From: Candidatus Pacearchaeota archaeon
GTDB taxonomy: Archaea; Nanobdellota; Nanobdellia; Pacearchaeales; GW2011-AR1
DNA: 64,000 bases
Reading direction: 5' to 3'
NCBI GenBank assembly: GCA_018304165.1
Contig: JAGVWS010000033.1
Location: forward strand, 60-64,059
A program made the translations under genes and the position numbers. Shown piece by piece: positions 7,032-58,323 of the stretch. A model generated the notes under the pieces. The model had not been told where the DNA came from, did no database searches, and saw only the letters and a program-made list of their open reading frames with translations. How positions within the stretch are numbered: position 1 is the stretch's first letter; each line of letters opens with the position of its first letter.

Positions 7032-10000
7032 TCAGAACCATTTCTTTAACTCAACCTGCTTATCCTTTTCTTTCCCAAATATGCTCTCAATATAACTCTT
7101 GGCCAAAAAAAGGCTCTGCCTGATATAGGGAGAAACATTGTACTTTGTCGCCAATTCAAGAGCCGGCTCAAGGTATTTTACAATGCTTCCATGAGAAACA
7201 GTAAATATGATCCTCCCCCCGCATTTCAGGCACTTTCCAACCAGGGGCGGCCTCCTGTAAATCTCGTTGCATCCAACGCACCTAAATGTCTGCTGTGAAA
7301 ACTTTCTTAAATTTCCCCTTATGTCTCTTATAAAGTGCCTTTCAATTATCAACCTTGCAACGTCTGATTCATCAACAGCCCTTATTTTCTTGTCTAATTC
7401 CATTTGCTTGTTTACTTTATCACGCATCGTCGGAAGGAATTTATAGGAAGAATTCAAAAGGCCCTTGTTGATATCGTCTGTTTCATGAGTATATCCTATA
7501 TTTGAAAATGCATCTTCTCCTTTTTTTAGGACATCCCTGATAGTCTTCACCTGCACTTCCGAAGAGTGTGCGCCCTTCTCTGAAAGTTCATATAACTGCA
7601 GGGGATATTCCATACCTACTTCAAAATCAAGAATCTGCTCATCAACTTCTCCTGCTCTCAGCCTGGAATTAAGGACAAGAGGCGCATCCTGCGTCCCTCC
7701 GCGATGCGCCGGAAGAAATTCTCTTGAGAAATTCAAAAGGACGTCAAGAAGCAGCATGACCGCGGCTTCATCGCCGTCGCATTGGCGTGTAAGAATTCCA
7801 TTAGCTAACACTACATGATTCTCTACATTTAAACAATAAGTTATTTGTTCCTTTTCGGCAGAAATTTCAATTATTGGATCATAAATAAAATTAGTATCTT
7901 GTTTAAGCCCCATATCCTTGCCGCCTTTTTTGTTTATATCATTGATTGCTATATCATTTATTTTAGAAAAGCTTTCCAAGAAATTAACTCTACAATTATT
8001 CCTATTAAAGAGGGGTCTTAGTCTTGGTAAAATTAAAAGATCTCCGATTTTCAGACCAGATGCAAATGCTGTTTTAATTGTATTCTCTTTAACTAAAAAT
8101 TTATGATTTTCTGTGGTAGTAATCTCTTTTCCTGTTGCAGTTTTTATTTTAATTGTTCTACTGGGAGAATGTTTAGTAAAGTTGTTAATACTAACTATTG
8201 ATAGATTATTTTCATTATCAAATCCAACAGTTTTATAATTTTCTACTTTTATCTCTTTAGTCCCATAATTATCAACAATATTTATTGGATTTAATTTTTC
8301 AACTAATTCTCCGATTTTTATATTATTCCATTGTTGACCATTATAAATTGGAAGCTTGGTATTATAATCAAAACAGTCCCTCCTCATAGCCGCATGTATA
8401 AACGGAGACGCAAGCAATCCCTGAGTCTTGCTGAATCCAATTATTCTTCCCAAAACCCCTGCGCAGTTGTGTGGAGACATGCAGGCGACCAGCTGCCCGA
8501 CAAGCTGGTCCTTCCTTTCAATATTATAAAAGGGCTTTGCTCCATACATTTTAACAAGAAGTTCGTCAATAAATCCGGCTATGTTCAGGAATACCTCTTC
8601 GGACTTCTCATCTTTTGACTCCGGACACGATGGAAGGATTATATCATGCGGTTTTATCTCCAGAATTTGCTCATCACTTGTTAATTCCTTGCCGCAAATA
8701 TCCTTTTCATAACCCATCTCCTTAAGCCTCTTGCTGCTCACTCCAATCTCTTTCGGCTTGAAGTGGGTTACTGGAAGCTCGGTAGCATCATACCTCACAG
8801 TTCCATCTTTATTCACACTAAGATTGTGCTTTGCTCTCAATATTCCTTTAGCCAGATTTTCCATAGAGTGGTTCTTATTGCTCGTTCCCCTGACTCCTTT
8901 TATTAAATGGGGGATATCCTTGCCAGACATTCCTAATTTTTTTGCTGCAGCTGCAAGATAGTTCGTGCTGTCAATTCTCCTGTTCAAATAAGAAGTAATA
9001 TTATTATGCCCTTCCTTGCCGCACTTCTTGGAGTAAATAATCTCCCTGCAGTCGCGGCAGTAATGCCTCTGCTCCGTATTTTTATCACAGCCCTCGCATC
9101 TTGCATAAATAGTATCCCTCCTGCAATTATTGCAGTAGTAAATTGGAAAATCCCCTTTTATAGTTCCTTTCTCGCTGGCCTCATTCACGCTTCTGAACCT
9201 TCCCCCCTCCTCTCCGACAGGAAAGAGAACGCTTGGGCTTCCAACCAGCTTCCTGAGCTTTGCCTTCTCTGGCCTCCCCATCCTGGCCCCTATAAAAGTC
9301 CCTGCCCTGTCTTTTATTGGCACAAATGCCAGTTTGTTAATTATATCCAAAACCTGCATGGAAGGATTTACTTTCAGCTTGAGATGTGCTATATCCTCTT
9401 TAAGAGAATATTGGTTATTTTCAAGAATATCCTGTAAAATTCCGAGATTATAAAGCAATGCCTTGCTCTCCTCTTCCTTAAGCACAACATTCTCCGTGGC
9501 AACTTCATGTGGCACGCCAAGCAATTCCAGCGCCCTCTTGCCTTCGGCAAACTGCTGTTTCTGCGGAAGGGAATAAGGAAGTATGATCTTCTTTTCTATA
9601 TAACTGTTTTCAAGCCAATAAAGCAAAGAGCAAAATAAACTGTAATCAATCTGCGTCCAATAATAAATATACTTTGGATGAAGCGGGATATTATACTCTT
9701 CACTCATCTTTGCCGCTTCATCAAAAGACACTTTGGAGGAGTCTATGTTCAGGGCAGGAACAGCTTTCTTTGCTTCAAGAGCCCACCATTCTTCGACATA
9801 CCCCTGCTTTAGAAGAGGCTGATTTCTATTCAATACATCTCCAAAAGAAAAGAGAATGTCTCCAAGATAAATAATCTCTTCAACATCCTTATAGCAGTTC
9901 TTTGCCTCTTCAATATTATTCACTCTCCTTACACTACCATTATACAATTTAACAATGGGCCCCTCAATGCTGTCGCAAACAGTAACAGCACATCCTTTAA

Positions 10001-11096
10001 TTGGCTTTTCTACTTTGAGTTGGGTTCCTATGGATATAAATCCTGCCGCAATCGCCATGGTAGCAGGATGTATTGAAGCTGCCGAAAACCCTCCAAACCG
10101 GCTCCTCCCGTACCTGAACCTAAAAGAACCTGATGCAGAAGGATGCCCGAATATCGGCCTCCCTGCAACCAGATCTTTAATATATGTGGGCGACAATTCT
10201 TTCTTTCCCTCATCTCTCTTCCTGTGAAGAGAAGTATACTCTTCAAGAAATTCCCACTCAGAAATTTTAAATCCACTCTTCTGAAGCTTTCTCAAAATCC
10301 TCAGGCCTTTCTGGGCCTTTTGCGCCAGCCCCTCTCCCAGAATCAGGCAGAAGCCACCCCTTATAAAATTAGTCTCCACTCTCTTAAGATCCTTGTAATT
10401 TGAAACTTCCCTGTCTTCTGTAGGCTCCCCGGAAACCTGGATTGGAAGATGCCTTGCCAAAAACTCCGCTTCTTCTTCAGTAGGCAGGTATTGTAAATTA
10501 GTAATCCTTTCATGATAATCATAAATCTCTGCTATTGTTCTCTTGATTTCTCTTTCTGTCGGCTTGTACTTTGCATATCCAAATGCCTCCCTGAGGTAAT
10601 CAATTAATATCAGCACTACGCAGGATGCTGTTGTTCCGGCGCTTCTTATTGGTCCTGAAAAGTAGGGCACAAAGTACTCTCCGCCGTCCTCATTCTTGTT
10701 AGTCTTTAATGCAGTATACCCCTCTATGGGGCTGCTTACCACTCCAAGCGTGCTATACGCGAAGCCTATTCTTATTCCTGCATCTATTGCTTCTAACTGG
10801 CTGCTAAAAGAACAAAATTTCTGCCTTGCGATTTCCTCAGCTATCTTAAAAGAAATTTCTGGCGCTAATTGCCCATACTCCTTCTCAAGCTCCATTATTC
10901 TGTTTACTATCTCTTGCTTGTCTATCTGGGGATAAATTGTTGAAATTAATCCAACAGCCTTAGCTGCAAGAGTAGCCGCCAGCTTAACTTCCACTTCCCC
11001 CACAGGATCATATCCTTTGGCTCTTGCTTCTCTTGCTATCTCATACAAAAGATTAACTCTGTCTTGTAACTCCGCAAAGTATTCTTCATTGCTCAT
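7032..11096 (-). CDS. polC: DNA polymerase II (PolD) large subunit DP2, containing a mini-intein
   Basis: 1354 aa with DP2 hallmark regions and Zn-finger clusters (CNNCRRD...CEGC; CVGCNEIYRRPPLVGKCLKCGG). Catalytic CDGDE motif immediately after the intein. Confidence 0.9.
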   Translation of the reverse strand: MSNEEYFAELQDRVNLLYEIAREARAKGYDPVGEVEVKLAATLAAKAVGLISTIYPQIDKQEIVNRIMELEKEYGQLAPEISFKIAEEIARQKFCSFSSQLEAIDAGIRIGFAYSTLGVVSSPIEGYTALKTNKNEDGGEYFVPYFSGPIRSAGTTASCVVLILIDYLREAFGYAKYKPTEREIKRTIAEIYDYHERITNLQYLPTEEEAEFLARHLPIQVSGEPTEDREVSNYKDLKRVETNFIRGGFCLILGEGLAQKAQKGLRILRKLQKSGFKISEWEFLEEYTSLHRKRDEGKKELSPTYIKDLVAGRPIFGHPSASGSFRFRYGRSRFGGFSAASIHPATMAIAAGFISIGTQLKVEKPIKGCAVTVCDSIEGPIVKLYNGSVRRVNNIEEAKNCYKDVEEIIYLGDILFSFGDVLNRNQPLLKQGYVEEWWALEAKKAVPALNIDSSKVSFDEAAKMSEEYNIPLHPKYIYYWTQIDYSLFCSLLYWLENSYIEKKIILPYSLPQKQQFAEGKRALELLGVPHEVATENVVLKEEESKALLYNLGILQDILENNQYSLKEDIAHLKLKVNPSMQVLDIINKLAFVPIKDRAGTFIGARMGRPEKAKLRKLVGSPSVLFPVGEEGGRFRSVNEASEKGTIKGDFPIYYCNNCRRDTIYARCEGCDKNTEQRHYCRDCREIIYSKKCGKEGHNNITSYLNRRIDSTNYLAAAAKKLGMSGKDIPHLIKGVRGTSNKNHSMENLAKGILRAKHNLSVNKDGTVRYDATELPVTHFKPKEIGVSSKRLKEMGYEKDICGKELTSDEQILEIKPHDIILPSCPESKDEKSEEVFLNIAGFIDELLVKMYGAKPFYNIERKDQLVGQLVACMSPHNCAGVLGRIIGFSKTQGLLASPFIHAAMRRDCFDYNTKLPIYNGQQWNNIKIGELVEKLNPINIVDNYGTKEIKVENYKTVGFDNENNLSIVSINNFTKHSPSRTIKIKTATGKEITTTENHKFLVKENTIKTAFASGLKIGDLLILPRLRPLFNRNNCRVNFLESFSKINDIAINDINKKGGKDMGLKQDTNFIYDPIIEISAEKEQITYCLNVENHVVLANGILTRQCDGDEAAVMLLLDVLLNFSREFLPAHRGGTQDAPLVLNSRLRAGEVDEQILDFEVGMEYPLQLYELSEKGAHSSEVQVKTIRDVLKKGEDAFSNIGYTHETDDINKGLLNSSYKFLPTMRDKVNKQMELDKKIRAVDESDVARLIIERHFIRDIRGNLRKFSQQTFRCVGCNEIYRRPPLVGKCLKCGGRIIFTVSHGSIVKYLEPALELATKYNVSPYIRQSLFLAKSYIESIFGKEKDKQVELKKWF
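7782..8375 (-). other. Mini-intein (198 aa, no homing endonuclease domain) inserted between ...HAAMRRD and CDGDEAA of DP2
   Basis: Starts with Cys (CFDYNTKL), TxxH block (TENHKFL), block F/G (YCLNVENHVVLANGILTRQ), ends in Gln followed by Cys+1. Coordinates verified codon by codon (C908=8373-8375, Q1105=7782-7784). Confidence 0.75.
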
Positions 11097-11545
11097 GTTA
11101 ATTATCAGTTAATATGGTTTAATGCCACATTTAGTTTATAACCCCATTTTGTTTATTTTTCATGTTAATTATTGGTTGGTAAGACTTTTATTTTTCATGT
11201 TAATTATTGGTTGGTAAGACTTTTATTTTATAACCATTCTTTATTTATTATCTGGGTTAATTATCAGTTAATATTCGTTAACAGCACATTTAATTTATAA
11301 CCTCATTTTATTTATTGCTCATGTTAATTATTGGTTGATAATTCTCCTCAGCAATTTATAATAATTGTTATGGTGGGTTATTGCAGATATTTATGCTATC
11401 TTTTCAGGATATATCCCATGACTTTAGTATTTCCCTATAATGTCTTGTGCTATATTATTTCCTCAATGCAGACAATAGCTTCAAAGTATATTTATTTTCT
11501 TAATGCAAACGATATTCTCAAAGCATGTTTATTAAAACAAAATTA
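11097..11545. repeat. Intergenic block of duplicated modules, including 3 extra copies of the DP2 start context (catgttaatta)
   Basis: Module gttaattatcagttaata / acatttaRtttataacc / tcatgttaattattggttgg is duplicated (11098-11230 and 11257-11345), with an internal 37-bp tandem duplicate at 11158/11195. Confidence 0.6.
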
Positions 11546-13261: not shown

Positions 13262-13400
13262 TTTGTCAAAACTATAGCTGGGAACTTTAATAGCTGAACT
13301 GTTAATCATTGACTACATACTCTGGATACCTCAATAGCTGAACTGTTAATCATTGACTACATACTCTGGATACTTTAATAGCTGAACCGTTAATCATTGA
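13262..13400. repeat. 45-bp tandem repeat x about 2.7 (aatagctgaactgttaatcattgactacatactctggatac) between cdc6 and DP1
   Basis: Direct repeats seen in sequence at 13280, 13325 and 13371. Confidence 0.7.
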
Positions 13401-13509
13401 CTATTAAGTAAAGGACATGCTATTTTGGTTAATTATTTATGTCTTTCACTATATCTCAATAATTTGAATGTACCTTGCCCGTCTGAACTTTTGAATATTA
13501 AATAAAAAA

Positions 13510-14982
13510 TCAAAAGTTCAGGCTGTCTGTTATTATTTCTCTCGCTCTTGGTATTATTTGCTCTGGAATGAGAAGCTTAATCTCCCTGGTTCTTCCATAC
13601 CTTCCCTTGCTTATTACTCTTGCATTTATCAATCCAAGCATGTCAAATTCGGCTATCAGATCTCCCACCCTTCTCTGAGTAAGTATTTCGTTCCTGCTCT
13701 TCCTGCACAGTTCCTGATATAAATTGTATATGTCTCCTGTAAAAATTTTCTGGTTTTTTTGGTTCTGGGCCCGTCTTTTATTATTCATCAACTCCAGTGC
13801 AGCAAGAAGAACTATCTGAAACTGCTTAGGAGCAGAGGAGATTATATCTAATATTTTATCCTTGTCTATTTTCTCATTGGCTATATCAATATGCTTTACA
13901 TCTATTCCACTCTCTCCGGCTCTCTCTGCAATTTCTCCTGCCACTCTTAGCAAGTCTAGAGCTCTTCTTGCATCTCCATGCTCTCTCGCAGCGTACGCTG
14001 CACATTTAGCTATAACTCCCTCTCCCAAAACCCCCTGTTTAAAAGAAACATCTGCTCTTTTCTTTAGAATATCCTGCAACTGCAGGGCATTGTACGGCGG
14101 AAAAATAATTTCTTCTTCAGACAAACTGCTCCTCACTCTTGGATCAATCAAGTCCAGAAATTTTAGATCATTGCTTATCCCTACTATGCTTAATGTTGTT
14201 TTATCTAGCTCAGAATTCATTCTCGTCAGATTATATAAGAAATCACTGGATATTTTCTTGACTGCCTGGTCTATTTCATCCAATATCAGGATGAATGTTT
14301 GTTTTTCTGATTCAATAAGGTCTATAAATTTATTATAAACCTGGTCTGTTGGAAGCCCGGTAGCAGGCACTTCTCCCCCCATCTTTTTAATAAGTTCTGC
14401 AAGAATTCTATATTCCGTATCTGCAACTTTTTTCAGTTTGCAGTTTAAGTATTCTATTTTAAGGGGAATTTCTAATTTTTTAGCCTTGTTTAAAAGTTGC
14501 TCCTTCATATACTTAATGCATATAGTCTTACCGCTTCCCGTCTGCCCGTAAACAAATAAGTTGCTTGTCCTCTCCCCCCTCAAAGCAGGTGCAAGAATGC
14601 TTGCAACCTGCTCAAGCTGCTCATCTCTGTGAATTATTTCATCAGGATGATACTTTGTCTGCAAGTGGCTCTTATCTTGAAATATACTTTCCTTAGCAAA
14701 AGAATCAAAAATCCGGTCTATTTTGCTCTTCATTCCCTGATTATTAATATTATCAGAATTATTTTTTATCCCATGATTAATTAGGTTATTAGAACTATTT
14801 TCCATCTCCCAATTAGTTAGATTATTAACATTACTTTTTATTTCCTGATTAAGTATATTATTAACATTACTTTTTATCTCTGCATTATTAATTTCTCTAT
14901 TATTAATATTATTAACACCCCTCTTTACTTCCTGATTATTAATTACGCTATTATCAATATTATAAATATTATCAACACTCAT
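13510..14982 (-). CDS. cdc6: Orc1/Cdc6 replication initiator (AAA+ plus winged helix), with a repetitive Asn/Ile-rich N-terminal extension
   Basis: Walker A GQTGSGKT, Walker B ILDEID, sensor motifs, C-terminal wH. Canonical Cdc6 N-terminus begins near M84 (IFQDKSHLQTKYHPDEIIHRDEQL). Residues 1-83 are about 12-aa periodic repeats encoded by 36-bp DNA repeats. Confidence 0.9.
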   Translation of the reverse strand: MSVDNIYNIDNSVINNQEVKRGVNNINNREINNAEIKSNVNNILNQEIKSNVNNLTNWEMENSSNNLINHGIKNNSDNINNQGMKSKIDRIFDSFAKESIFQDKSHLQTKYHPDEIIHRDEQLEQVASILAPALRGERTSNLFVYGQTGSGKTICIKYMKEQLLNKAKKLEIPLKIEYLNCKLKKVADTEYRILAELIKKMGGEVPATGLPTDQVYNKFIDLIESEKQTFILILDEIDQAVKKISSDFLYNLTRMNSELDKTTLSIVGISNDLKFLDLIDPRVRSSLSEEEIIFPPYNALQLQDILKKRADVSFKQGVLGEGVIAKCAAYAAREHGDARRALDLLRVAGEIAERAGESGIDVKHIDIANEKIDKDKILDIISSAPKQFQIVLLAALELMNNKRRAQNQKNQKIFTGDIYNLYQELCRKSRNEILTQRRVGDLIAEFDMLGLINARVISKGRYGRTREIKLLIPEQIIPRAREIITDSLNF

Positions 14983-15414
14983 TTTTACCCTCTTACCTCT
15001 TTTCTTTAAAATAGATTAGATTCAACCATTTCTTCATTTTATAAAACTTTAGATACTCTATAATATGGTAACAACTTATATTTATCCTATTTATCTCACC
15101 CTTTTATCTCACTATCTCCCCTTCTTATCTCACACCTCTATTTCTTATGGAAACCATATAATAACAAAAAATTTCCTTGAAAAAAGGTATTTTTTAGTTT
15201 ATATCTGATAAAATTAAAAAATAACAGTTAACCTTTTCTTCCTGTGGAAATATTAAGCTAATATATATTCTAAGTTATATTATATTATATTATAATTATT
15301 TTAATATATATAATATATAATATAAAACTTTTTAAACAAAAAAAGAAAAAAGAAAACCAACTTTCATTTTATAAAGTTTTCTATGAGAAACAAAGGGGTC
15401 AGGGTCTATATTAC
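14983..15414. promoter_or_regulatory. Candidate replication origin (oriC): ORB-like boxes plus extreme AT tract (DUE) upstream of cdc6
   Basis: ttcCTGTGGAAATat (15237) and TGGAAACC (15145) resemble the archaeal mini-ORB core CCAGTGGAAAC. ttatctcac occurs x3 (15092-15135). A (tatat)-rich tract at 15258-15345 is a DUE candidate. Position next to cdc6 and PolD matches typical archaeal origins. Confidence 0.4.
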
Positions 15415-15842: not shown

Positions 15843-16109
15843 TTGCTTATGGCAATTGATAAGAAGCCTTTCAGCGCTATTCTAAGCAAGCTCATAGTAA
15901 CGAAAGAGGGTAAGAGATTAGGGATGGTTAAGGATATTACATTTGAAACCAGAACAGGAGAATTAATTCATTTAGTTGTTAAAGATCCTACCCCTTACAC
16001 AAAAAACCTGAACTTGGAATCTACACAATCCAAAGAAATTCTCATACCTTATAATTCTATAATTGCTATCGGCGACTTTGTTGTTGTTTCTGAAGAAGAT
16101 TTAGTTTAA
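15843..16109 (+). CDS. PRC-barrel domain protein
   Basis: Size and pattern (GKRLGMVKDITFETRTGELIHLVV...IPYNSIIAIGDFVVV) typical of archaeal PRC barrel proteins. Confidence 0.45.
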   Translation: MLMAIDKKPFSAILSKLIVTKEGKRLGMVKDITFETRTGELIHLVVKDPTPYTKNLNLESTQSKEILIPYNSIIAIGDFVVVSEEDLV

Positions 16110-17447: not shown

Positions 17448-18404
17448 ATGGATCCTAAAATAAAAGAGGCCTTTGATAAAGTTAAAGAAGATGTTTACCT
17501 CTTGTCTAAAGAAACTTATAATGTAGGGGTATATCTAGAGTCCACAAGAACAGAAATAAGAAGAGATATAAAAGTAGAAATTTCTCAATCCATAGATATC
17601 ATAAATAATCTCTTAAATGAGAAGCTAAATACGCTTAAAATACAGATAGAGAGACTGAATGACCAAATTCTTTCAGTAATCAATATTACTACATCAACCC
17701 CAACCCCGACACCAACATCAACACAAGCCCCAATTTCCCTCCCCACCCCCACACCCCTCCTCACCCTAACTCCAACACAAGACTTCCAAAAATCAACAAC
17801 TCCAACACATAATCCAACAATCCAACAGTTTCAACAGCCCTTAAAACAGCAAAAAACAGCATTTTCCATAGGAAACGAAGGGGTTCCAACAGACAAACCA
17901 ACAGACAAACCAACAGACAAACCAACAGACAAATATGAACCCCCTTTAGTTAAAACAGCACAAATACCCTCACAAAACATAGTGCCTAAAGAACTAAGAA
18001 TAGTAGAAATAGGTACTACAACAGAAAAAACATTTAATGATATAAATAATAGCATAACTAAAAAAAGAAATGATTTTGATGAAGCCATAAAAATCCTCGA
18101 AAGTTTGGACGGAATAAAGAAAGAAATTCGCCGCAAATTCAAGCAATTGACTTCAATGGAGATGAAAGTTTTTTCCCTACTCTACTCTTTGGAGGAAAAA
18201 GGAGAACTTGTCGATTACAGGCTATTAGCCTCAAAATTAGAACTTTCGGAGAGTTCTATAAGAGATTATATTGGCAGAATTATGAATAAAGGAATCCCCA
18301 TCATTAGAGAAAGAGTAAACAATAAAAAAATCCTCCTTAAAATTTCTTTAGATCTCAAAAAAATAGCAACTCTTGACACAATACTTCAATTAAGAGGATT
18401 ATAA
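17448..18404 (+). CDS. Coiled-coil / low-complexity linker / C-terminal winged-HTH protein (paralog of 18626-19297)
   Basis: N-terminal helical region (AFDKVKEDV...), PT-rich and PTDK x4 linker, C-terminal wHTH (MEMKVFSLLYSLEEKGELVDYRLLASKLELSESSIRDYIGRIMNKG). Confidence 0.5.
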   Translation: MDPKIKEAFDKVKEDVYLLSKETYNVGVYLESTRTEIRRDIKVEISQSIDIINNLLNEKLNTLKIQIERLNDQILSVINITTSTPTPTPTSTQAPISLPTPTPLLTLTPTQDFQKSTTPTHNPTIQQFQQPLKQQKTAFSIGNEGVPTDKPTDKPTDKPTDKYEPPLVKTAQIPSQNIVPKELRIVEIGTTTEKTFNDINNSITKKRNDFDEAIKILESLDGIKKEIRRKFKQLTSMEMKVFSLLYSLEEKGELVDYRLLASKLELSESSIRDYIGRIMNKGIPIIRERVNNKKILLKISLDLKKIATLDTILQLRGL

Positions 18405-18625
18405 GGGCTATAAATCCCCTTTTTAGCTTGTTTAATCCTATAATTTCAATTAAGTAGATATTTTGTATAACGAATATCTTTACAAATTTCTTAGTATATT
18501 CTTGCTTTTTAAACCTTATAAGCTTAAAATTTAAGCTTTTTATATTTTTTCACACTTTCCTTACTTTTCTTTCAAATCTTATTTAATTTTCTTTAATTTT
18601 TCTCTGTTTTTCAGTTAGTGCCCTC

Positions 18626-19297
18626 TTAATCTTCTCTTTCCTGTTCTTTTTTAGTCTTTTTAACTCTCACTTTTACATCTTTTAACAAAATTTCCTTAAC
18701 GGAGTCTGGTATAAAGACTCTCTTTTTACCATTTTTTTCAATTATTTCTTCTATTAAGCTCTCACTTTTCTGTTTTATGCTATTTATCTGTCCTCTTATT
18801 GTTGTTCTTGTTTTTCCCAGCATAGCTGAAAGATCATCATAACTAAGCTTTAACTCCGTGTTTATTAAGACATACACTAATGTTCTTTCCATAGAAGAAA
18901 GTCCTCTTAAAAAATCACTACTTCCACCTGTTTGAACACCTGTTTGAACACCTGTTTGAACACCATAAACAGCTGTTTGTTTGCCTTGAACAGCTGTTGG
19001 TTGCTTAAACACCTGTTTAGAAATTCTTCCTCCAGTCAAAAAAACAAAATTTTTTACAGAAATTAAATCCTGCTCTACCGACGATAAACGCAAATCCATC
19101 TCATCAAACCTTTTTTCAGTGTTGTTGTCTGCCTGTTTAAGGTGTTCAAGCCACTTAGAAACACTCTTTATATCTTCTTTAACAATTTCAAAAGCATTCC
19201 TGGTATCTGTTTTTACCCTTTCAACCTCTTTTTTCCTGCCAAAGAGCCATCCAAACATGTTCTCCCTTACATAGCCTTCTTTATAAACCTTTTCCAT
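18626..19297 (-). CDS. Coiled-coil / Q-T-G-V repeat linker / C-terminal winged-HTH protein (paralog of 17448-18404)
   Basis: Same architecture as the 17448-18404 protein (AFEIVKEDI..., C-terminal MERTLVYVLINTELKLSYDDLSAMLGKTRTTIRGQI). The linker is encoded by ctgtttgaacacc repeats. Confidence 0.5.
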   Translation of the reverse strand: MEKVYKEGYVRENMFGWLFGRKKEVERVKTDTRNAFEIVKEDIKSVSKWLEHLKQADNNTEKRFDEMDLRLSSVEQDLISVKNFVFLTGGRISKQVFKQPTAVQGKQTAVYGVQTGVQTGVQTGGSSDFLRGLSSMERTLVYVLINTELKLSYDDLSAMLGKTRTTIRGQINSIKQKSESLIEEIIEKNGKKRVFIPDSVKEILLKDVKVRVKKTKKEQERED

Positions 19298-19379
19298 TAT
19301 TTTTCTTTACCGTCGATAAAAATGGATAAAATTGATATATTTTTTGCAGGTTTTTATGTTTTCTAAACTCTTAGGGATG

Positions 19380-19760
19380 TGTTGGAATGACTCCAACACA
19401 TGGCTGTTTAAACACCATTTTTGTGTGATTTTGACTCTTAAACAGCTGTTTAAACACCTATAAACACCTATAAACACCTATAAACACCCCTAAACAGCAT
19501 TTAATAGCTGTGATGTTATCCTTAAAATTCCCATAAACATCTTTTCTTCACAATATCCTCACTATCTTTATCTTAATTTGTCTTAATTTTGCCTGAAATT
19601 TTTTAAAAGTAGATTAAAAGCAGACTTGTCGTCGGCAAATTTTTATTCCCACCAAAGATTATTTAAACACCTCAACGTTCTTAAAAATACCCTGTTCTGA
19701 GATAGTTTTAAATACTCATTATTATTTATTCTATTTAGGGGGTGTTTAAAATGGCTAAGT
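19380..19760. promoter_or_regulatory. Array of palindromic GGTGTTTAAACACC-type sites and a GTGTTGGA-n5-TCCAACAC palindrome upstream of the wHTH gene
   Basis: ctgtttaaacacc at 19397 and 19447; ctataaacac x3 at 19456-19485; gtgtttaaa at 19669 and 19743; perfect inverted repeat gtgttggaatgactccaacac at 19380. Confidence 0.45.
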
Positions 19761-19909: not shown

Positions 19910-20044
19910 TCCTCTTGCGAAAGTTGTTTTTTGTTTTTGATTAAAACTTTTGACGCAGAAAAAGATGTGTAGGAAAAGATACGTAGAAAGGGCTTGAGCT
20001 TCATATGATGCAATGATAGCTTTTACAACAGCAAAACAACTATA

Positions 20045-20142
20045 TTAATTGAGATACATTAATTGAGATACATTAATTGAGATACATTAATTGAGATACA
20101 TTAATTGAGATACATTAATTGAGATACATTAATTGAGATACA
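20045..20142. repeat. 14-bp tandem repeat x7 (ttaattgagataca)
   Basis: Perfect tandem copies seen directly, immediately upstream of the small membrane protein gene at 20174. Confidence 0.8.
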
Positions 20143-20173: not shown

Positions 20174-20314
20174 ATGGTAACAATAAATCTCGCAATCTCG
20201 GGCATCCTAGCCATTCTTGTCGGGCTTTTAATCCTGATTGTTCCGCGTTTGCTGAGGTGGGCCATAGGGTTATATCTGATAATCGTAGGAATTCTAAGCT
20301 TCATACCTATGTAA
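20174..20314 (+). CDS. Small membrane protein (46 aa, 2 TM), paralog of 19751-19909
   Basis: MVTINLAISGILAILVGLLILIVPRLLRWAIGLYLIIVGILSFIPM. Overlaps the antisense ORF 20101-20433, which is probably spurious. Confidence 0.45.
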   Translation: MVTINLAISGILAILVGLLILIVPRLLRWAIGLYLIIVGILSFIPM

Positions 20315-20477
20315 GAATCAAATCGGGTTGAATCTTTTAGTTTTTGCTTAAAACTTTCTGCATGAATAAACTCTGTAAAAAGCCGGCCAAAAACGACTAA
20401 AAATCGCCAAAAAGATGAGCTTTTTGATAACATTGTAGTATAGAAATAGTTAAAAAGTATTCCAATCTATCTAATCA

Positions 20478-20768
20478 ATGGCCTACAAACCTTTCAATAT
20501 ACCTCGGCCAAACAAAGATACCTTAAAAATTGGCGACTATGTTATTGGGTTAAAAGACTCTACTAATTCTGATATTGTCAAGATTGAGAGTGTAGAAAGA
20601 GATAAATTTAGTTACGTTGATTTAGAAGGCAACAGGCACTTTATAAATTATGTACGCGCTGGAGCCAGGCACAGTCCTCCAGTAATCTTTATGAGGATTC
20701 ATGGAACTGGCTTAGAGGTTGTTGCAGCCTCATTATGGCTCAATGAGGAACTTGAAAAACTACTTTAA
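20478..20768 (+). CDS. Hypothetical protein
   Basis: ORF with no recognised motif. Confidence 0.3.
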   Translation: MAYKPFNIPRPNKDTLKIGDYVIGLKDSTNSDIVKIESVERDKFSYVDLEGNRHFINYVRAGARHSPPVIFMRIHGTGLEVVAASLWLNEELEKLL

Positions 20769-21127
20769 ATCTTTCTATCAACGCTTAAAACTTCCTACAT
20801 AAATCACAAAGAGGCAAAGAGGGCTAATAAACAACTTAATAAACAACCCAATAAACCTTGAAAAACCCTCTAAAGTTTGCACAAGGTTTATTGTGCATAC
20901 ATTAGTTTTTGATGGTTTTTGATGATATCGTCCCTTACATTATCTTACGGAGCTCTACTTTCCTCTATTAATCACTTAATAGCGGCTCGCTAAACAAATT
21001 ATAATCTCTTTAAAATACTATAACCTTGCAATGATTGTGTCCACTTACAACCTTCAGGTTATATACCATTATATTATGAGTGTTTAGATTAGATAATTCC
21101 TGATGCCTAAATTCTTTTATATCCTCT

Positions 21128-22000
21128 TTGCTGTCACTACTCATGCCTTTAGAGATTATTCTGCCAAGTTTCTATGAAAGCTCAAGGAATTCTAAAGATA
21201 TTATAATCTCAATTCTTACCAGGAACCACCCATTAAGTATAAAGAAAGTTTACAACAAAATGAGGTCCGGCCACAAATATGGAGGTACGTTTCAGTCAGT
21301 TTTCAAGAGCATTAAAGAGCTTCAGTTACAGAATATCCTAATGCGGGCAGGAAAAGAGTATTCCCTCAATCCAAACTGGATTGAAAAAATAAGAAGCTTT
21401 GCTAATGAACTGCATAGAGGTTACTTTGAGCCGATAAACAAAGAGGAAGCAGATATCAGCGAGATGTCTCTTAAGAAGGAAGTCCACAAATTTGAATTCA
21501 ACAACCTCTCTAATCTATATTTTTTTGTTAAGAATATAGAGAAGAGTTACATAGACAATTCGCAGGGAAAAAAGAGATGTCTGTGGATAATGTCTCATTA
21601 TTGGCCTACTTTTCTATTTCCTCATGAAGAGCATGACAGGGGCATATTCCTCAGCTCAAAGAAAGTCAATTATTATATCACTCACAAGTCCGAAAATGCA
21701 TTGGACAAATGGGCGCTGAAGATTTTTTCCGGAAAGGGAGTTAATATTCTCTGTAAAGCAGGCATTTCAGAGCGTTCTGATGTAGGTGTATATGGAGATT
21801 GGGTGGTTGAAGTTTACTATTCGGAATCTTTTAAGAATATTCATAAATATTTCAGGGAAGTTTCAAATATTTCAGAGATAGATTTAAGCAGTTTTATCGG
21901 AGATCTAAAAAAAGATTACAAGATTGTAGTAGTCATGCACAAAGATAAATTTGTAGCAGATCAAATCTGGGATTCCATATATAAAAAAATATTAGCTTAA
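21128..22000 (+). CDS. Hypothetical protein with possible N-terminal wHTH
   Basis: N-terminal region (IISILTRNHPLSIKKVYNKMRSG) resembles a wH fold. The 3' end of the gene is tandemly duplicated at 21961-22075. Confidence 0.3.
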   Translation: MLSLLMPLEIILPSFYESSRNSKDIIISILTRNHPLSIKKVYNKMRSGHKYGGTFQSVFKSIKELQLQNILMRAGKEYSLNPNWIEKIRSFANELHRGYFEPINKEEADISEMSLKKEVHKFEFNNLSNLYFFVKNIEKSYIDNSQGKKRCLWIMSHYWPTFLFPHEEHDRGIFLSSKKVNYYITHKSENALDKWALKIFSGKGVNILCKAGISERSDVGVYGDWVVEVYYSESFKNIHKYFREVSNISEIDLSSFIGDLKKDYKIVVVMHKDKFVADQIWDSIYKKILA

Positions 22001-22232
22001 AACATAAATGGTATTCCATATATAAAAAAATATTAGCTTAAAACATAAATGGTATTCCATATATAAAAAAAAATTTATCATGGTAATTCAACTTTTTAGT
22101 TTACTGAATTAAACATTATAGTTTAATGAGTTAAATAAATCTCTTTAATTTCCATTAAACCTCATCTTTATTACTTATTTTGTCCACTTAGACTCAGCAA
22201 AAAACGGATGTTTATTAAAAGGGTGATGATTT

Positions 22233-24101
22233 ATGGGGATAAATTTTTTCAAAAAACCATGGTTTATAATCTTGGCTGTAGTTGTTTTGGTAATTCTCTT
22301 CTTAGTCATTGCATATGCAAGCGGCTCTAAAGTGGTTAATGAGCCTGAGATTCAATGGGTATCTCATACAGAGTACTGGAGCGGAGGCGATGCTTCTACT
22401 ATAGTGAGGCTGGTAGATTATAAGGGAAGGCCGATTGAGGGTGCTGCATGTACAGCAAGCATATTCAGGCCCGATGGAAGTATTTTTGTAAGCGGGCAGC
22501 CCATGCAGGCTTCTGCAATTGCGGGCAATTTTGAGAGAAAGGACTCGCTGGGAGGGCAGCCCGTCGGAACATACCAGCAGGAAGTAACATGTGTCTATGG
22601 AGGAAATACTATCAGGACTTCGGAGTCGTTCCATGTAAATCCCGCTCTTGAGAATATCAGAGAAGCAACGACTAATTTGTCTTTGTTAAGAAATGAGTTG
22701 AGCAACGTTAATATTTCAGTAAGCGCTCTTGTAACTTCCACAGGAGAGAGCATCAATCTCAAAATAGATTCAACGAGAACAAACCTCACTGAATTGATGA
22801 GGGCTGTTGAAAGCAGCATAATCAGCGATATAGGCAGCACTAAAGCCAATCTAACAACGCAGTTGAGCAGTATTAATGTCTCTTTAAGCGGAAACATTGC
22901 AGATACCCGTGCAGCTGTAACAACACAGCTCTCAAATGTTAATGCAAGCATAACTAACTTAATTACCAATACACTTCAGCCGGCGCTGGAAGCAAAGATA
23001 GAAGAGCAGATAGCAATTCTTACCACTCTTCTTAATAATGTTAATGCCTCAATAACTGCTACTGTAACTTCCACAGGAGAGAGCATCAATTTAAACATTG
23101 ACATGACAAGAACCACTCTCTCTGGCCTTCTTGACACTGCAGAATCCAATGTAATGAGCAACATTGACACGACGCGGGCGTCTTTAAGCACTCAATTAAG
23201 CAATGTCAACATCTCCTTGACAAGCAATCTGGCAAATACAGAAAACAGAATTTCCACACAGCTTTCAAATGTTAATGGGAGCATAAGTACTTTAATTACC
23301 AATACACTTCAGCCGGCTCTTGAAGCAAAGATAGAAGAGCAGATTGCATTGTTAATGGCTCAGATGAGCAACATTAATGCTTCCTTGACAGCAGTTGTGA
23401 CTTCTACAGGAGAGAATATTAATTTGAACGTTGACACGACAAGAACAAGCCTGACAAACACTCTGAACAGCGTCGAGACAAATGTTCTTAACAGCATTAC
23501 AAGCACACAGGCAAATCTTGGAACTCAGCTAAGCAATATTAATGTATCTTTGACAAACAATCTTGCCAGCACTCAAAACGTTCTTTCAACACAGCTCTCT
23601 GTGGTAAATACAAATATAAGCAGCTTAATTACAGACACTCTCAGGCCGGGGCTCGAGTCTTTAATGAACCAGCATTACAACAACTTAAGCACAGCGATAA
23701 CAAATGTTTATACAGATACACAATGGCTTGTTTCCAATTCTATGAATCAGCAGGATATGGCGGAGATATCAGGCAGGTTTGACAGCATTGACTCCAACCT
23801 TGCGGTGATAGAGGCATTTTGCGGAAATCCGGAAACCACAAACTCTGCTCTTTGTAATGAACTGGACACAATAAACGCCGCCATAGACACTCTTCAGTCT
23901 GAGCAAAACACAAGGCTTAGTGAGATAAATGCCACAGTCTCAAACACGTGGGAATTGCTGAGCGGAACAATCACAGACAACATAAACACCATCCTGGTAG
24001 ATTTGAACATTATAAAGTCAAGGACAGGAGAAATTAATACAACTGTTTACTCAATAAAAGAAACTGTAGAGAGCGCAGTAGATATAAGAGTGATATCTTA
24101 A
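22233..24101 (+). CDS. Membrane-anchored surface protein with three long internal repeats of about 115 aa (Ser/Thr/Asn-rich)
   Basis: N-terminal TM, then repeats LSNVN(I/A)S...TSTGESINL(K/N)ID.TRT.L...QLS.VN.S...LITNTLQPALEAKIEEQIA. Antisense ORFs 22302-23191 are repeat artefacts. Confidence 0.55.
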   Translation: MGINFFKKPWFIILAVVVLVILFLVIAYASGSKVVNEPEIQWVSHTEYWSGGDASTIVRLVDYKGRPIEGAACTASIFRPDGSIFVSGQPMQASAIAGNFERKDSLGGQPVGTYQQEVTCVYGGNTIRTSESFHVNPALENIREATTNLSLLRNELSNVNISVSALVTSTGESINLKIDSTRTNLTELMRAVESSIISDIGSTKANLTTQLSSINVSLSGNIADTRAAVTTQLSNVNASITNLITNTLQPALEAKIEEQIAILTTLLNNVNASITATVTSTGESINLNIDMTRTTLSGLLDTAESNVMSNIDTTRASLSTQLSNVNISLTSNLANTENRISTQLSNVNGSISTLITNTLQPALEAKIEEQIALLMAQMSNINASLTAVVTSTGENINLNVDTTRTSLTNTLNSVETNVLNSITSTQANLGTQLSNINVSLTNNLASTQNVLSTQLSVVNTNISSLITDTLRPGLESLMNQHYNNLSTAITNVYTDTQWLVSNSMNQQDMAEISGRFDSIDSNLAVIEAFCGNPETTNSALCNELDTINAAIDTLQSEQNTRLSEINATVSNTWELLSGTITDNINTILVDLNIIKSRTGEINTTVYSIKETVESAVDIRVIS

Positions 24102-24901: not shown

Positions 24902-25235
24902 GGACGTTATAATAATTATTCGCGTCGATAAGTTACTTTGAAACCAGAAGTGATTAACTGATAACATATAAAACAATAATTAGCGTCGATAAGTTACTTT
25001 GAAACCAAGGAATCAAGGATAATTAACTAATATTAATTGATAAACTGCAAAACATAAAACGCTGCTCTAATCTGAATGTATGATTCAACACTATTGATAA
25101 ATCTCTAATAAGCTAATATCTGAATGTATGATTCAACACTATTGATAAATCTCTAATAAACTAATTTATTATTATAAGAACTATTGCGATAGATATATTA
25201 AAAATTAGTGCGGAATTTACCTAATCACCTATAGT
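24902..25235. repeat. Mosaic repeat region homologous to 55480-55735
   Basis: Both carry ataagttacYttRaaacca...aattaactgataa x2, a 47-bp direct duplicate (25071/25120), and the module TTAGTGCGGAATTTASCTAATCAC. Confidence 0.55.
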
Positions 25236-27788: not shown

Positions 27789-28054
27789 AGTATCTCCGAT
27801 GGATTGCTATTACATATTAGAAATAAGAGATATAGAATCTATTAATTAATTTTGAAACACCAGCCATCTAGTTCTTAACGATGATAAATACTGGCAAGCC
27901 ATCTAGTTCTTAACGATGATAAATACTGGCAAGCCATCTAGTTCTTAACGATGATAAATACTGGCAAGCCATCATCCAAGTTATCCTAATCTGATTTACA
28001 ATATTAATTGAGCCCTGAATCTATTACTAAGCTATATTTGTATTGGAGATACTT
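27789..28054. mobile_element. MITE-like element carrying an internal 35-bp x3 tandem array, abutting the 3' end of tRNA-Ala
   Basis: Ends AAGTATCTCCGATGG (27789) and GTATTGGAGATACTT (28040) match the family TIR. 35-bp unit ccatctagttcttaacgatgataaatactggcaag x3 at 27864-27968. Confidence 0.55.
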
Positions 28055-41992: not shown

Positions 41993-42329
41993 TATTTTTT
42001 AAAGTATATCTCTGTCTAATTGAGTTCTGGCGCAGCCAGAACTACACGCCGGTTTACTAGGGCATATTTAACTTCATTTTACGCCATAAAATTCAGAAGC
42101 GACATTGAGTAGCGATGAAGAAACTAAGAGTGCGCAGAGCGAAACTGAGAAAACAAAAGTTTTCGAGGACTCAAGATGTCAAAATTAAAATAATTTTGAG
42201 CACATTCAAAAATTAACATTTTTGATGAGTGACCTTCTTGAAGTATGAAGCTTCAGTGTGCAGATTAAATTCTGCTCTGTACGGGCAAGATTCTCGGCAT
42301 GAAAGAAATTTCATGAGGTAAACTGGCTA

Positions 42330-42430
42330 CACTGTGTCTTGGCTCAACAGGCTTGCTGATGACAACAGGTCTGATTTCAATTGCAACAACAGGAACCTCG
42401 ACAATGACGACGGCTCTCTGTTTGGAATAG
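42330..42430 (+). pseudogene. Decaying partial duplicate of the 3' region of gene 41171-41992
   Basis: About 85% identity to 41727-41825; the differences are predominantly G-to-A (ggc to gac/aac). Confidence 0.6.
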
Positions 42431-43479: not shown

Positions 43480-43584
43480 AGATTTGATTTTTTGAGCCAC
43501 GAAAATTGAAAATTTTTGATGTTTAAGAAGAGTTAAAAAATCCTTATCTGATAAGCTCCATAATCAACCTAATATGTGTAATCC

Positions 43585-43752
43585 GCTCAGATTATAATAA
43601 GTTGCATGATTTGTATTAGTGATAATTAATTCTGCAAAACGCTCAGATTATAATAAGTTGCATGATTTGTATTAGTGATAATTAATTCTGCAAAACGCTC
43701 AGATTATACTATGTTGTATGATTTGTATTAGTGATAATTAATTCTGCAAAAT
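43585..43752. repeat. 56-bp tandem repeat x3
   Basis: cgctcagattataataagttgcatgatttgtattagtgataattaattctgcaaaa repeated; third copy slightly diverged. Confidence 0.8.
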
Positions 43753-58280: not shown

Positions 58281-58323
58281 ATAAGCCGCTGCATAAATCT
58301 TTAAATATATCAAATAACAGCTC

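Follow-up and report, generated by a model that had tools for sequence, protein, structure and literature searches.

Two convergent genes in the Candidatus Pacearchaeota DNA analysed here (a stretch of 64,000 nt, below called the window) each carry, in the segment that encodes an unstructured protein linker, an array of short DNA words; the elements are conserved and phased, selection acts on them at the level of the nucleotides, and they differ in step with the protein subfamily. On balance we favour the reading that the linker-coding DNA of these genes, A and B, is made up of protein-binding word arrays to which the products of A and B themselves would bind, while Orc1/Cdc6 would occupy an origin recognition box (ORB) in A; the identity of the binding proteins, the autoregulation and any part played in replication or segregation are what we infer from these arrays. 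The coordinates of the features are collected in Table 1.

Table 1. Features of the A-B locus and the neighbouring origin (positions in the window)
Feature	Position	Strand	Remarks
Orc1/Cdc6	13510–14982	−	Pfam Cdc6_lid 3e-24, Cdc6_C 1e-22
Canonical oriC	15132–15399		Inverted ORBs 15132–15153 (−) and 15378–15399 (+); TA-rich DUE 15259–15330 between
Gene A	17448–18404	+	318 aa; coiled-coil N-terminus, linker, winged HTH
A-type word array	17771–17933	+	TCCAACAC x2, TCCAACA x3, (CCAACAGACAAA)x4 at 17886–17933
Candidate ORB TTTCCATAGGAAACGAAGGGGT in gene A	17863–17884	+	Encodes FSIGNEGV
A-B convergent spacer	18405–18625		Repeated AAAGTGAGAGTTAAA in orthologous spacers
Gene B	18626–19258	−	210 aa; long helix, unstructured linker, winged HTH
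AAAGTGAGAGTTAAA in B C-terminal tail	18659–18673	−	Encodes K-V-R-V-K; first copy of spacer motif
In-gene B-type array	18921–19019	−	Encodes KQVFKQPTAVQGKQTAVYGVQTGVQTGVQTG; contains AAACAGGTGTTTAAG, AAACAGCTGTTT, (GGTGTTCAAACA)x3 at 18925–18964
TATCGTCG word in B coding sequence	19079–19086	−	Encodes L-S-S; same word beside B promoter
In-gene word TTGAACACCTTAAACAG	19133–19149	−	Helix region of B; inverted repeat
TATA box of B (TTTATAAA)	19280–19287	−	About 22 nt before ATG 19258
Promoter-proximal word TATCGACG	19311–19318	−	Beside B promoter
Palindrome GTGTTGGA-ATGAC-TCCAACAC	19380–19400		n5 spacer; A-type words
Upstream B-type array	19403–19498	−	Seven SSTGTTTA units on B strand, five at 10-nt spacing

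All the sequence features named in the original prediction were recovered. That prediction, made from the window alone, gave A and B one architecture (N-terminal helical domain, disordered low-complexity linker, C-terminal winged HTH). BLASTP of A against B alone does not detect the kinship (not significant, E 0.11), but profile-profile comparison of the two families with hhalign aligns 171 columns at 95.9% probability (E 5.7e-9), and by this comparison A and B are paralogs of the same architecture. Gene B had been drawn as 18626–19297; its start was corrected by ortholog comparison to the ATG at 19258, at the conserved MFGWLFGRKK, and the TATA box lies downstream of the ATG at 19297. AF2 was uninformative on the single B sequence (pLDDT 51), and when rerun with 111 sequences it predicted a helix at residues 3–75 and a wHTH domain at residues 115–196 (pLDDT ~90), and the winged HTH fold of the C-terminal domain is confirmed; Foldseek matches of this domain are the MepR/MarR, Lrs14 (AbfR2) and ArsR folds, as well as CadC and SmtB (E 3e-4 to 5e-3), and a profile search gave a weak match to 6cmv. 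The linker is predicted to be unstructured (pLDDT 48–65), as had been proposed, yet in the family alignments it is the best-conserved segment of both proteins, which the label of low-complexity sequence had not foreseen.

Homologs number more than 1129 for A and more than 2182 for B (B being present in 425 species genomes), and the two genes occur together, within a few kb of oriC and cdc6, in hundreds of genomes of Pacearchaeota/Woesearchaeota, convergent in 32 of 32 loci. No Pfam or NCBIfam model matches A or B above threshold (HTH_11 reaches 17.8–18.3 bits against a cut-off of 25, and NCBIfam gives no match), and sequence searches of Pfam, NCBIfam, PHROGs and PDB place A, B and the neighbouring o148 and wHTH90 in no family, with weak HTH_11 and coiled-coil matches only; literature searches found no description of the A/B family or of the in-gene array phenomenon. 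An overlapping antisense gene was rejected, since the opposite strand is open for fewer than 20 aa in 51 of 56 orthologs; by reading of the sequence, the +1-frame ORF in the window is only 18 aa long.

The DNA of the B linker consists of (SSTGTTCAAACA)x3 plus AAACAGCTGTTT, with a tandem repeat of CACCTGTTTGAA (3.3 copies, 100% identical) at 18925–18964. The pattern TGTTYAAACA has 7 matches in 64 kb where 0.6 are expected, all of them in the B linker or the array upstream of B, in agreement with the claim that the two regions have words in common. Among orthologs the B word TGTYYAAACAG is present in 3–5 copies at a spacing of 12 nt, and the 12-nt unit is identical, nucleotide for nucleotide, across 57 orthologs despite ~50% amino-acid identity; in some lineages all three units have switched jointly from GTT to GTC. 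Codon choice in the motif, compared with the rest of the gene, is GTT 84% versus 41%, CAA 94% versus 53%, ACA 91% versus 58%, GGT 92% versus 26% and GCT 97% versus 40%, the codon entropy ratio is 0.18 in the linker and 0.83 outside it (p 9e-7, Mann-Whitney), and identity at third positions is 0.87 versus 0.63. Synonymous sites of B are frozen only in the linker; wHTH codons are at background, and this includes columns whose amino acid is invariant (L151, G190, T166). The linker array is the stop-free version of the upstream TGTTTAAACAG array: a spacing of 12 nt is the multiple of three closest to a helical turn, and the change of T to C makes TAA into CAA. Elsewhere, TGTYYAAACA has 27 matches in 352 kb, ~4 times the estimated chance number, and some of these extra copies adjoin recombinase genes while others encode KQLFK.

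Gene A has a different word class in the homologous segment. CCAACAG occurs at 3.3/kb in A against 0.10/kb in the background, D is encoded by GAC in 98% of motif columns versus 30% elsewhere, and the orthologous arrays are often pure (ACAG)n. The ORB pattern has three matches in 64 kb (15132–15153, 15378–15399 and 17863–17884) and nothing else, with 0.02 in shuffles; the first two flank the DUE beside cdc6, and the third, with the same pattern, is the element in A. A G-rich string at one end is a feature of the A. pernix and Sulfolobus ORBs. Haloarchaeal ORBs carry such a string at one end (PMC3528665), and the TTCC...GAA dyad core comprises the motifs that are perfectly conserved in ORB and mini-ORB (PMC1904270). 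The element in A has the dyad core (TTTCCATAGGAAAC at 17863–17876, found in 46 of 46 A orthologs when 1 nt is allowed) and, after the dyad, the G-rich GAAGGGGT, whose GGG-GTT codons are 100% invariant. The strict pattern is kept in 36 of 46 orthologs and the remainder are 1 nt off, the variation lying in the leading T's; the codons TCC, GGA, GGG, GTT and CCA are each 100% conserved, and the box is kept in divergent A-like genes. At nine columns between 140 and 156 all orthologs have the same codon, whereas the wHTH of A is at background. By these features the element is a canonical ORB and a candidate Orc1/Cdc6 site. This ORB, the separate word class in A and the oriC context are features beyond the original prediction.

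The spacing of TATA box and ATG implies that the B mRNA is leaderless, and orthologous loci have a conserved TTTTTAAAT / TTTATAAA ~35 nt upstream of the MF.W start. Upstream of this promoter, as had been claimed, there is a genuine multi-site array with 10-nt repeats and a spaced palindrome (19380–19400). Exact copies of the palindrome CTGTTTAAACACC stand at 19404–19416 and 19446–19458 (the coordinate 19397 first given for one was off by 7 nt), the cores being TGTTTAAACA at 19405–19414 and 19447–19456 and AAACAGCTGTTT at 19440–19451, and the 10-nt repeat TAAACACCTA runs for 4.6 copies at 19451–19496. There are 2 matches of GTTTAAACAC against 0.09 expected. The copy number of the upstream 10-mer appears to be particular to this genome. 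A-type words are present as well: four of the five matches of TCCAACAC in the window are at the spaced palindrome or in gene A, and TCCAACA occurs at 1.3/kb upstream of B against a background of 0.24/kb.

Both GTTTAAAC, at 10 times background, and TGTTTAAACAG are found upstream of B in 37 of 48 orthologous loci, where TGTTT accumulates at −220 to −120 of B, conserved in position and phase, and pairs of TGTTT number 94 at a spacing of 10 nt versus 11–15 at 9 or 11 nt. Such phasing fits binding along a single helix face. The position of the array relative to B varies from −120 to −236; it lies 100–220 nt upstream of the TATA box and overlaps neither BRE, TATA box nor start, a placement atypical for a simple archaeal repressor. 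TATCGWCG is the sole promoter-proximal word, except in locus L087, where a site precedes the TATA box by ~30 nt. Only B faces such an array, nothing like it being found upstream of A, which corrects the proposal that both paralogs face one. Half-sites at 19669 and 19743 had also been proposed, and these do not survive: the sites 19659–19671 and 19741–19753 serve a divergent 52-aa membrane-protein gene as its TATA box and its Shine-Dalgarno region, and they show no conservation in 18 orthologous loci. A hairpin (GTGCACTAAGG..CTTAGTGCA) upstream of many arrays is absent in the window, and it belongs to the promoter of the divergent small membrane-protein gene, since in other loci it lies just upstream of that TATA box.

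Further words of the locus are frozen or enriched. TATCGWCG occurs at 1.7/kb in B and 1.8/kb upstream of B against 0.03/kb in the background, Ser72 of B, within the TATCGTCG word, is TCG in 98% of orthologs, the AAA/CAC codons of K51/H52 are frozen in the TTGAACACCTTAAACAG word, and in the AAAGTGAGAGTTAAA copy of the B tail K209 AAA and V210 GTG are each 100% conserved. Orthologous A-B spacers are 93–703 nt long, and 24 of 32 contain AAAGTGAGA; the idea of the spacer as an origin DUE found no support (27% GC versus 31% background, many AAAGTGAGAGTT repeats, and a complete oriC at 15132–15399). The three or four additional words (TATCGWCG, AAAGTGAGAGTT, ORB) show that several factors read the locus, and for this reason the assignment of any single word to A or B is uncertain. 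A single binder common to A and B is disfavoured because their words differ within one genome.

More distant members of the family have words of their own (GTTCATGAAC, GTGACGCGCGTCAC), which repeat every 8–10 nt and are read in shifting frames. Divergent B-like linkers contain arrays of GTTCA/TGAAC or GTGACG/CGTCAC words with periods of 8 and 10 nt (GTTCAATC x3, GTTCACACAT x3, GTTCAATCGC x3), a single DNA word is translated as MNVQ, ERS or TF according to frame, and in each of four divergent loci 7 to 11 of the 9–12 words in the coding sequence fall in nt 210–400. Flanking copies are variously placed: in L087 TTTGGACGGCTGTTTA adjoins the TATA box, in L089 GTGACGCGCGTCAC follows closely after the stop codon, and in L082 about 9 copies of AAAGTGAGAGTTAAA come after a divergent B-like gene. 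Loci L082 and L084 have no flanking array and have kept the in-gene array alone, and because several divergent members lack the flanking array, upstream-operator autoregulation cannot be the common function. The recognition helix and the word pair up as TIRGQIN with TGTYYAAACAG, TVRRHIN with GTTCATGAAC, SIRDYIG with CCAACAG and STIKNII with GTGACG, a correspondence drawn from four subfamilies, and the in-gene words appear to change together with the flanking words and the recognition helix. Selection on the linker peptide was rejected, since synonymous codons are frozen and divergent members read one DNA word in shifting frames; the codon-level and cross-subfamily evidence makes the DNA word the selected unit in the linker, and that evidence supports the idea of binding sites within the gene body.

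The window has an oriC-cdc6-dp1-dp2 neighbourhood, and the prc88-cdc6 spacers of other loci are laid out like its oriC. The B arrays are 3.9 kb from oriC and the A-B locus 2–4 kb from it; cdc6 is present in 43 of 80 loci, and in the 29 located loci its distance to the start of B is 2.9–4.4 kb. Conserved neighbours of A-B are cdc6, a PRC-barrel protein, o148 and wHTH90, among which there is no ParA/SegA Walker-type ATPase gene. Synteny stops at the array, the window genes at 20174–24101 being without counterpart in 80 loci. A Borg-like origin of the window was rejected, as cellular genes (PolD, cdc6, tRNAs, 5S rRNA) are present.

Under the favoured reading the linker segment of each gene would double as a phased array of short DNA words, to which dimers or oligomers of the encoded protein would bind cooperatively on one helix face; Orc1/Cdc6 would bind the ORB within A, and a nucleoprotein complex would form across the A-B locus near oriC. 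At B, occupancy of the in-gene array and looping to the upstream array ~450 bp away would block or throttle the gene's own transcription, giving negative feedback. It is possible, but we think doubtful, that the locus is a self-encoded replicator-like or centromere-like module, in which two winged-helix paralogs loaded onto arrays in their own genes beside an Orc1/Cdc6 box would form an oriC-proximal complex that controls initiation or anchors and segregates the origin region, the linker peptide being a translated by-product of the binding-site array. The conserved N-terminus of B (MFxWLFGKKK) looks like an amphipathic membrane-targeting helix.

An unlikely alternative is that the B-type arrays are accessory origin elements bound by Orc1/Cdc6 or another initiation factor, with A-B an extended or second origin and the A/B proteins not the readers. 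Paralog A has a canonical ORB at the homologous position, the locus is syntenic with oriC and cdc6, and the Thermococcales dp1 gene offers a precedent, an in-gene ORB cluster to which Cdc6 binds in vivo (PMC1904270). The dyad-spacer-GGKGTT layout of the ORB (TTCCATAGGAAA-YGAA-GGGGTT) recurs in the B element AAACAGCTGTTT-AT-GGTGTT, and the oriC ORBs end in AGGTGTT. The B-type units (TGTYYAAACAG) have neither TTCC nor GAA; only the trailing GGTGTT resembles an ORB tail. Against this alternative, the words vary between A and B in one genome and among subfamilies while the ORB is constant. Moreover, canonical oriC contains no TGTTTAAACAG, a complete oriC (inverted ORBs plus DUE) already adjoins cdc6, and the divergent B-like loci show ArgRS or unrelated genes, not cdc6, in the few kb retrieved. 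Nucleotide-level selection in a transcribed region would fit equally well an RNA element, that is, mRNA sites for an RNA-binding protein (possibly the wHTH itself) or a small RNA, or a structure controlling translation or stability, and the palindromic words are able to pair; we regard this as quite improbable, because main-family arrays precede the TATA box of a gene with a leaderless mRNA and are presumably untranscribed, the L089 words are downstream of the stop codon, and 10-nt helical phasing and the presence of the words on either strand (palindromes, TGAAC/GTTCA) speak for duplex DNA. Searches of this locus and of 12 orthologous ones against Rfam gave no match, and the near-invariant sequences give no covariation for a fold.

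Two further explanations concern how the repeats arose or move. On the first, site-specific recombinases would use the TGTTYAAACAGCTGTT words for attachment or crossover, and the DNA upstream of B would be a hotspot of integration. In its favour, synteny does not extend past the array, six loci (L057, L059, L060, L067, L083 and L087) have a gene for a serine or tyrosine recombinase 0.5–3.6 kb upstream of a B-like gene, and extra copies of the word adjoin recombinase genes or flank an inserted gene. Most loci, the window included, have no recombinase nearby, several extra copies merely encode KQLFK, and att sites leave the 10-bp phased arrays, the in-gene arrays and the subfamily-linked word changes unexplained, so we give this explanation very little weight. 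Replication slippage, which the original prediction had offered for the in-gene words, would make the repeats non-functional products, low in complexity and microsatellite-like, kept uniform by concerted evolution in a repeat-prone genome. This genome does have many perfect tandem repeats, the four perfect GGTGTTTATA units at 19451–19496 and (CCAACAGACAAA)x4 resemble recent local expansions, and the joint GTT to GTC change of three B units and the often pure (ACAG)n of the A array are of the kind expected. As the sole explanation, however, slippage is contradicted by a B unit that stays identical among orthologs of ~50% amino-acid identity, whose remaining synonymous sites are saturated, and by single-copy words (ORB, AAACAGCTGTTT, TATCGTCG, AAAGTGAGAGTTAAA) that are frozen too; with a matching non-coding array conserved in position and phase, we find it barely credible.

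If DNA-level function indeed dictates the linker, as the module would require, A and B would be a protein family whose conserved disordered region is set by its DNA, and a clear natural example of dual-use coding sequence, which cautions against inferring peptide function from conserved low-complexity motifs. The arrays provide concrete, testable candidate sites for an uncharacterised, order-wide DPANN gene pair, place a previously unannotated ORB and several conserved motifs near the origin of organisms that are still genetically intractable, and suggest that the recognition sequences of such proteins might be predicted from their own genes.

Among known systems, the in-gene tandem repeats of Borg elements reportedly create disordered regions and are fast-evolving and element-specific; like them, the repeats here encode a low-complexity disordered peptide in a genome with many perfect intergenic repeats, but the B unit is shared by hundreds of species and has a counterpart in a non-coding array. 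Iterons and ParR-parC are built of phased direct repeats, and B similarly has direct repeats beside the presumed binder's gene, four to seven in number and about one helical turn apart, on an archaeal chromosome, with another fold and with the array duplicated within coding sequence. The parS centromere sites are said to lie within the parB/spo0J coding sequence near oriC, and the A-B locus would be analogous in having a palindromic, codon-constraining site in the gene of an origin-proximal DNA-binding protein; the parS outer arms TGTT...AACA happen to resemble the B word, and, as for ParABS/SegAB centromere-like sites, arrays lie within and upstream of B close to oriC. Unlike ParB, A and B have no ParB fold or CTPase domain and their cluster has no ParA/SegA partner, and in place of one 16-bp site the segment that encodes the linker has phased arrays of many copies. 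B also differs from MarR/Lrs14/ArsR regulators in its N-terminal helix of ~70 residues and conserved unstructured linker, and from MarR regulators in lacking MarR-type ligand-binding dimerisation helices.

According to Samson et al. 2013 (PMC3607249), Orc1-1, Orc1-3 and WhiP are each encoded beside the origin they specify, and the A-B locus resembles that replicator-initiator pairing in encoding a winged-helix protein at its proposed target DNA near ORBs; no DUE was identified at A-B, unlike in such systems. UBP/ucm is an origin accessory factor, and an origin may be unable to function without accessory motifs to which proteins other than initiators bind (PMC12141716), although the A/B fold is unrelated to the beta-rich fold of UBP. 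Matsunaga et al. (2007, PMC1904270) describe for Thermococcales a cluster of ORBs and mini-ORBs within dp1, the gene for the small subunit of PolD, to which Cdc6/Orc1 binds both in vitro and in vivo, and the A-B locus is like it in having boxes in a protein-coding gene a few kb from oriC/cdc6 with order-wide conservation. Here, however, the ORB is in a wHTH gene across oriC and the dp1 of the window has no ORB pattern, A has a single ORB followed by a different word array, and its paralog B has a non-ORB word that is also arrayed upstream of the gene.

The linker is the most conserved segment of both proteins (consensus KQTAVxGVQTxVQTxVQT in B and SxGNxGVPTD(R/K)(Q/P)TD in A), and three codon comparisons among orthologs show that this conservation lies at the nucleotide level. 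Codons of the linker motif in 57 B orthologs depart strongly from usage in the remainder of the same genes: GTT for V makes up 84% in the motif vs 41% elsewhere, CAA for Q 94% vs 53%, ACA for T 91% vs 58%, GGT for G 92% vs 26% and GCT for A 97% vs 40%. Median codon entropy relative to background in amino-acid-conserved columns of B is 0.18 at residues 95–125 vs 0.83 elsewhere (p 9e-7), and invariant residues of the B winged helix-turn-helix (wHTH) show normal synonymous variation. In A, nine columns within 140–156 are single-codon in 100% of 46 orthologs, with everything else in that gene at background. The upstream palindrome TGTTTAAACA has its nearest stop-free form in the B unit SSTGTTCAAACA, in which CAA stands for TAA; some genomes have TGTTCAAACAG and TGTCCAAACAG as such in their upstream arrays.

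Across orthologous loci TGTTT is clustered on the B strand 120–220 nt before the start codon, mostly spaced 10 nt apart (94 pairs vs 11 at 9 nt and 15 at 11 nt); GTTTAAAC is present in 37 of 48 upstream regions, at 10 times the background rate, and the core of the array is SSTGTTTAAACAGSTGTTTA. TAAACAG occurs 7.3 times per kb upstream of B, 3.3 in B, 0.18 in A and 0.37 in background; for CCAACAG the values are 0.37, 0.16, 3.3 and 0.10, respectively. All sequence features listed in the original prediction exist, well over chance expectation: GTTTAAACAC occurs twice (0.09 expected), the 13-mer CTGTTTAAACACC with ≤2 mismatches 11 times (1.4 expected; 10 of them at the A–B locus) and TGTTYAAACA seven times (0.6 expected), always in the B linker or upstream array, and the 10 and 12 nt tandem repeats and the palindrome GTGTTGGA-n5-TCCAACAC were also found. 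Its start codon for B, ATG 19297, must be replaced by ATG 19258, which begins the conserved MFGWLFGRKK; the TATA box lies downstream of the former and only ~22 nt upstream of the latter, so the B mRNA is probably leaderless. Nor do the half-sites at 19669 and 19743 hold as B operator sites, as they are not conserved and lie in the TATA box/Shine-Dalgarno region of a divergent small membrane-protein gene. In other loci (L005, L013, L017, L027, L032, L037, L059, L065, L077, L080 and others) a palindrome or hairpin, TTGTGCACTAAGG-N4-CTTAGTGCA, often after ATGCAAAATTTTGCAT, is conserved ~230–330 nt upstream of B, immediately before the TATA box of the small membrane-protein gene where that gene exists; it does not occur in the window.

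Positions of features in and around the A–B locus, in gene order, and of repeats elsewhere in the window
Feature	Positions	Strand	Remark
PolD DP2 (large subunit)	7032–11096		Precedes Orc1/Cdc6 in gene order; intein (Intein_splicing domain, residues 925–1102)
PolD DP1			Precedes Orc1/Cdc6 in gene order
Orc1/Cdc6	13510–14982	-	
Orc1/Cdc6 N-terminal repeats	14736–14982		36-nt and 51-nt tandem units
oriC (canonical), ORB	15132–15153	-	Inverted pair
oriC, TA-rich stretch	15259–15330		Flanked by the ORBs
oriC, ORB	15378–15399	+	Inverted pair
NUDIX gene			
PRC-barrel protein	15843–16109		88 aa
o148			148 aa
wHTH90			90-aa wHTH
Gene A	17448–18404	+	
ORB in A	17863–17884		TTTCCATAGGAAACGAAGGGGT; frozen; TTCC...GAA core and G-string
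AAAGTGAGAGTTAAA copies	18405–18673		Spacer downstream of B
Gene B	18626–19258	-	
TATCGWCG in B	19079–19086		
B TATA box	19280–19287		
TATCGWCG by B promoter	19311–19318		
RT-16 RNA (RF03019)	42025–42335	+	Rfam match, 69 bits vs gathering score 50
Tandem repeats	2699–2792, 11152–11229, 13289–13403, 20044–20142, 21968–22075, 25070–25165, 27862–27973, 43584–43751, 50119–50219, 55509–55597, 56531–56640, 58234–58327		Some overlap ORFs, e.g. 50119–50219, 58234–58327 and the 5′ part of 56531–56640

B has >2182 homologs, is present in 425 species-level genomes, and A has >1129 homologs; they come from MAGs of Pacearchaeota, Woesearchaeota and Nanoarchaeota. Only 500 clusters were recovered when 1.84 billion cluster representatives were searched with a profile, so the family is confined to one lineage. 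No curated family model scored above threshold for these proteins, and the searchable literature yielded no account of either family or arrangement. Judged by hhalign (probability 95.9%, E 5.7e-9; alignment across the N-terminal F..VK.DI motif, linker motif and wHTH), A and B are paralogs. The AF2 model of B (111 sequences) predicts a single long helix (residues 3–75), an unstructured stretch (76–114, pLDDT 48–65) and a confident wHTH (115–196) with Foldseek matches to MarR/MepR, Lrs14-type AbfR2 and ArsR/SmtB. Residues 1–12 of B, which look like an amphipathic membrane-targeting helix, are kept across subfamilies (MFGWLFGRKK, MGFWLFGKKR, MGLLSFLFGNKK); family A does not have this N-terminus.

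The linkers of divergent B-like proteins are different peptides (such as SFMNVQ, VHERS, RTFNRS and SHMFTHVHT) encoded by arrays of GTTCA/TGAAC words (GTTCATGAAC, GTTCGAAC, and three copies each of GTTCAATC, GTTCACACAT and GTTCAATCGC). Because their period is 8 or 10 nt, successive copies of a single word are read in different frames, all three being used. A higher-GC member has GTGACG/CGTCAC palindromes in the linker and again directly 3' of the gene, L087 has TTTGGACAGC-type words in the gene and adjoining its TATA box, and the word class goes with the recognition helix (TIRGQIN, TVRRHIN, SIRDYIG, STIKNII). These results exclude selection on peptide or codons and favour duplex DNA rather than RNA as its target, and the pattern would be expected if each protein reads its own gene's array.

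Across loci, synteny covers cdc6 / PRC barrel–o148–wHTH90–A / B as a block, A and B are convergent neighbours in 32 of the 32 loci in which both were located, and the layout of oriC is repeated in the prc88–cdc6 spacers of related genomes. The ORB (origin recognition box) in A has the same pattern as those bordering the TA-rich element (DUE) beside cdc6, a pattern found three times in 64 kb (0.02 expected). Every A ortholog has it, as do the divergent A-like partners, in which it encodes SSTRNDGV or SSTGNKGV and is followed by other microsatellites. The conserved PRC-barrel protein that adjoins oriC has hits to solved PRC-barrel structures (chains 8qzo and 8onw, E 4e-10), which we take to be archaeal cell-division proteins; it heads the run to A. 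Orc1/Cdc6 has an N-rich N-terminal extension of ~80 aa, which is specific to this genome, since tblastn alignments to other genomes start only from residues 68–88. TATCGWCG is enriched ~57-fold over background at the B locus; in B it encodes Leu-Ser-Ser with a rare TCG codon (98% of orthologs have TCG for Ser72), and by the B promoter it adjoins TATA box and array in orthologous loci. wHTH90 is a candidate reader of it. Between the TATA box of cdc6 and the cdc6-nearest ORB lies the related TTATCGTTGA.

These elements exist and are under selection, and the best-supported reading of the sequences is that the arrays are protein-binding sites embedded in coding sequence. Who binds them, and why, we infer as follows: the wHTH products of A and B would bind the arrays of their own genes, Orc1/Cdc6 would occupy the ORB in A, and together they would form an oriC-proximal complex; B could also exert feedback through its intragenic array, perhaps with looping to the upstream one. 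That the initiator itself binds the arrays, as accessory origin elements, seems unlikely to us, and an element acting at the RNA level is improbable, as the distant relatives favour duplex DNA. Pure slippage, earlier offered as a source of the in-gene repeats, is hardly credible, being untenable by itself given the word arrays of those relatives.

Very improbable, too, is that the words are recombinase att sites, although serine/tyrosine recombinase genes recur 0.5–3.6 kb upstream of B-like genes (L057, L059, L060, L067, L073, L083, L087) and synteny stops at the B array; the region upstream of B may be an integration hotspot. Additional TGTTYAAACAGCTGTT words lie at the promoters of recombinase genes or on either side of an inserted MGMT-like gene, which in L057 apparently splits a recombinase gene. 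AAAGTGAGAGTTAAA encodes K-V-R-V-K at the B C-terminus and recurs in A–B spacers, distant subfamilies included, with 2–9 copies downstream of B-like genes (in L082, 3596–4040). The first copy overlaps the gene end, in distant subfamilies providing the TGA stop codon, and L089 has a reverse-oriented copy directly before a B-like gene.

The window, from a DPANN archaeon of ~37% GC, has an unusual abundance of tandem repeats whose units measure 14–56 nt and recur, perfectly or nearly so, 2–7 times (ATTAATTGAGATAC × 7.1 and a 56-mer × 3, for example), many of them between ORFs or at ORF ends by our reading of the ORF list. Borg elements are likewise repeat-rich, but here the host is a cellular DPANN genome. 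For the ORB inside A, the Thermococcales offer a comparison, as there intragenic ORB clusters near cdc6, within dp1, are bound by Cdc6 (PMC1904270).
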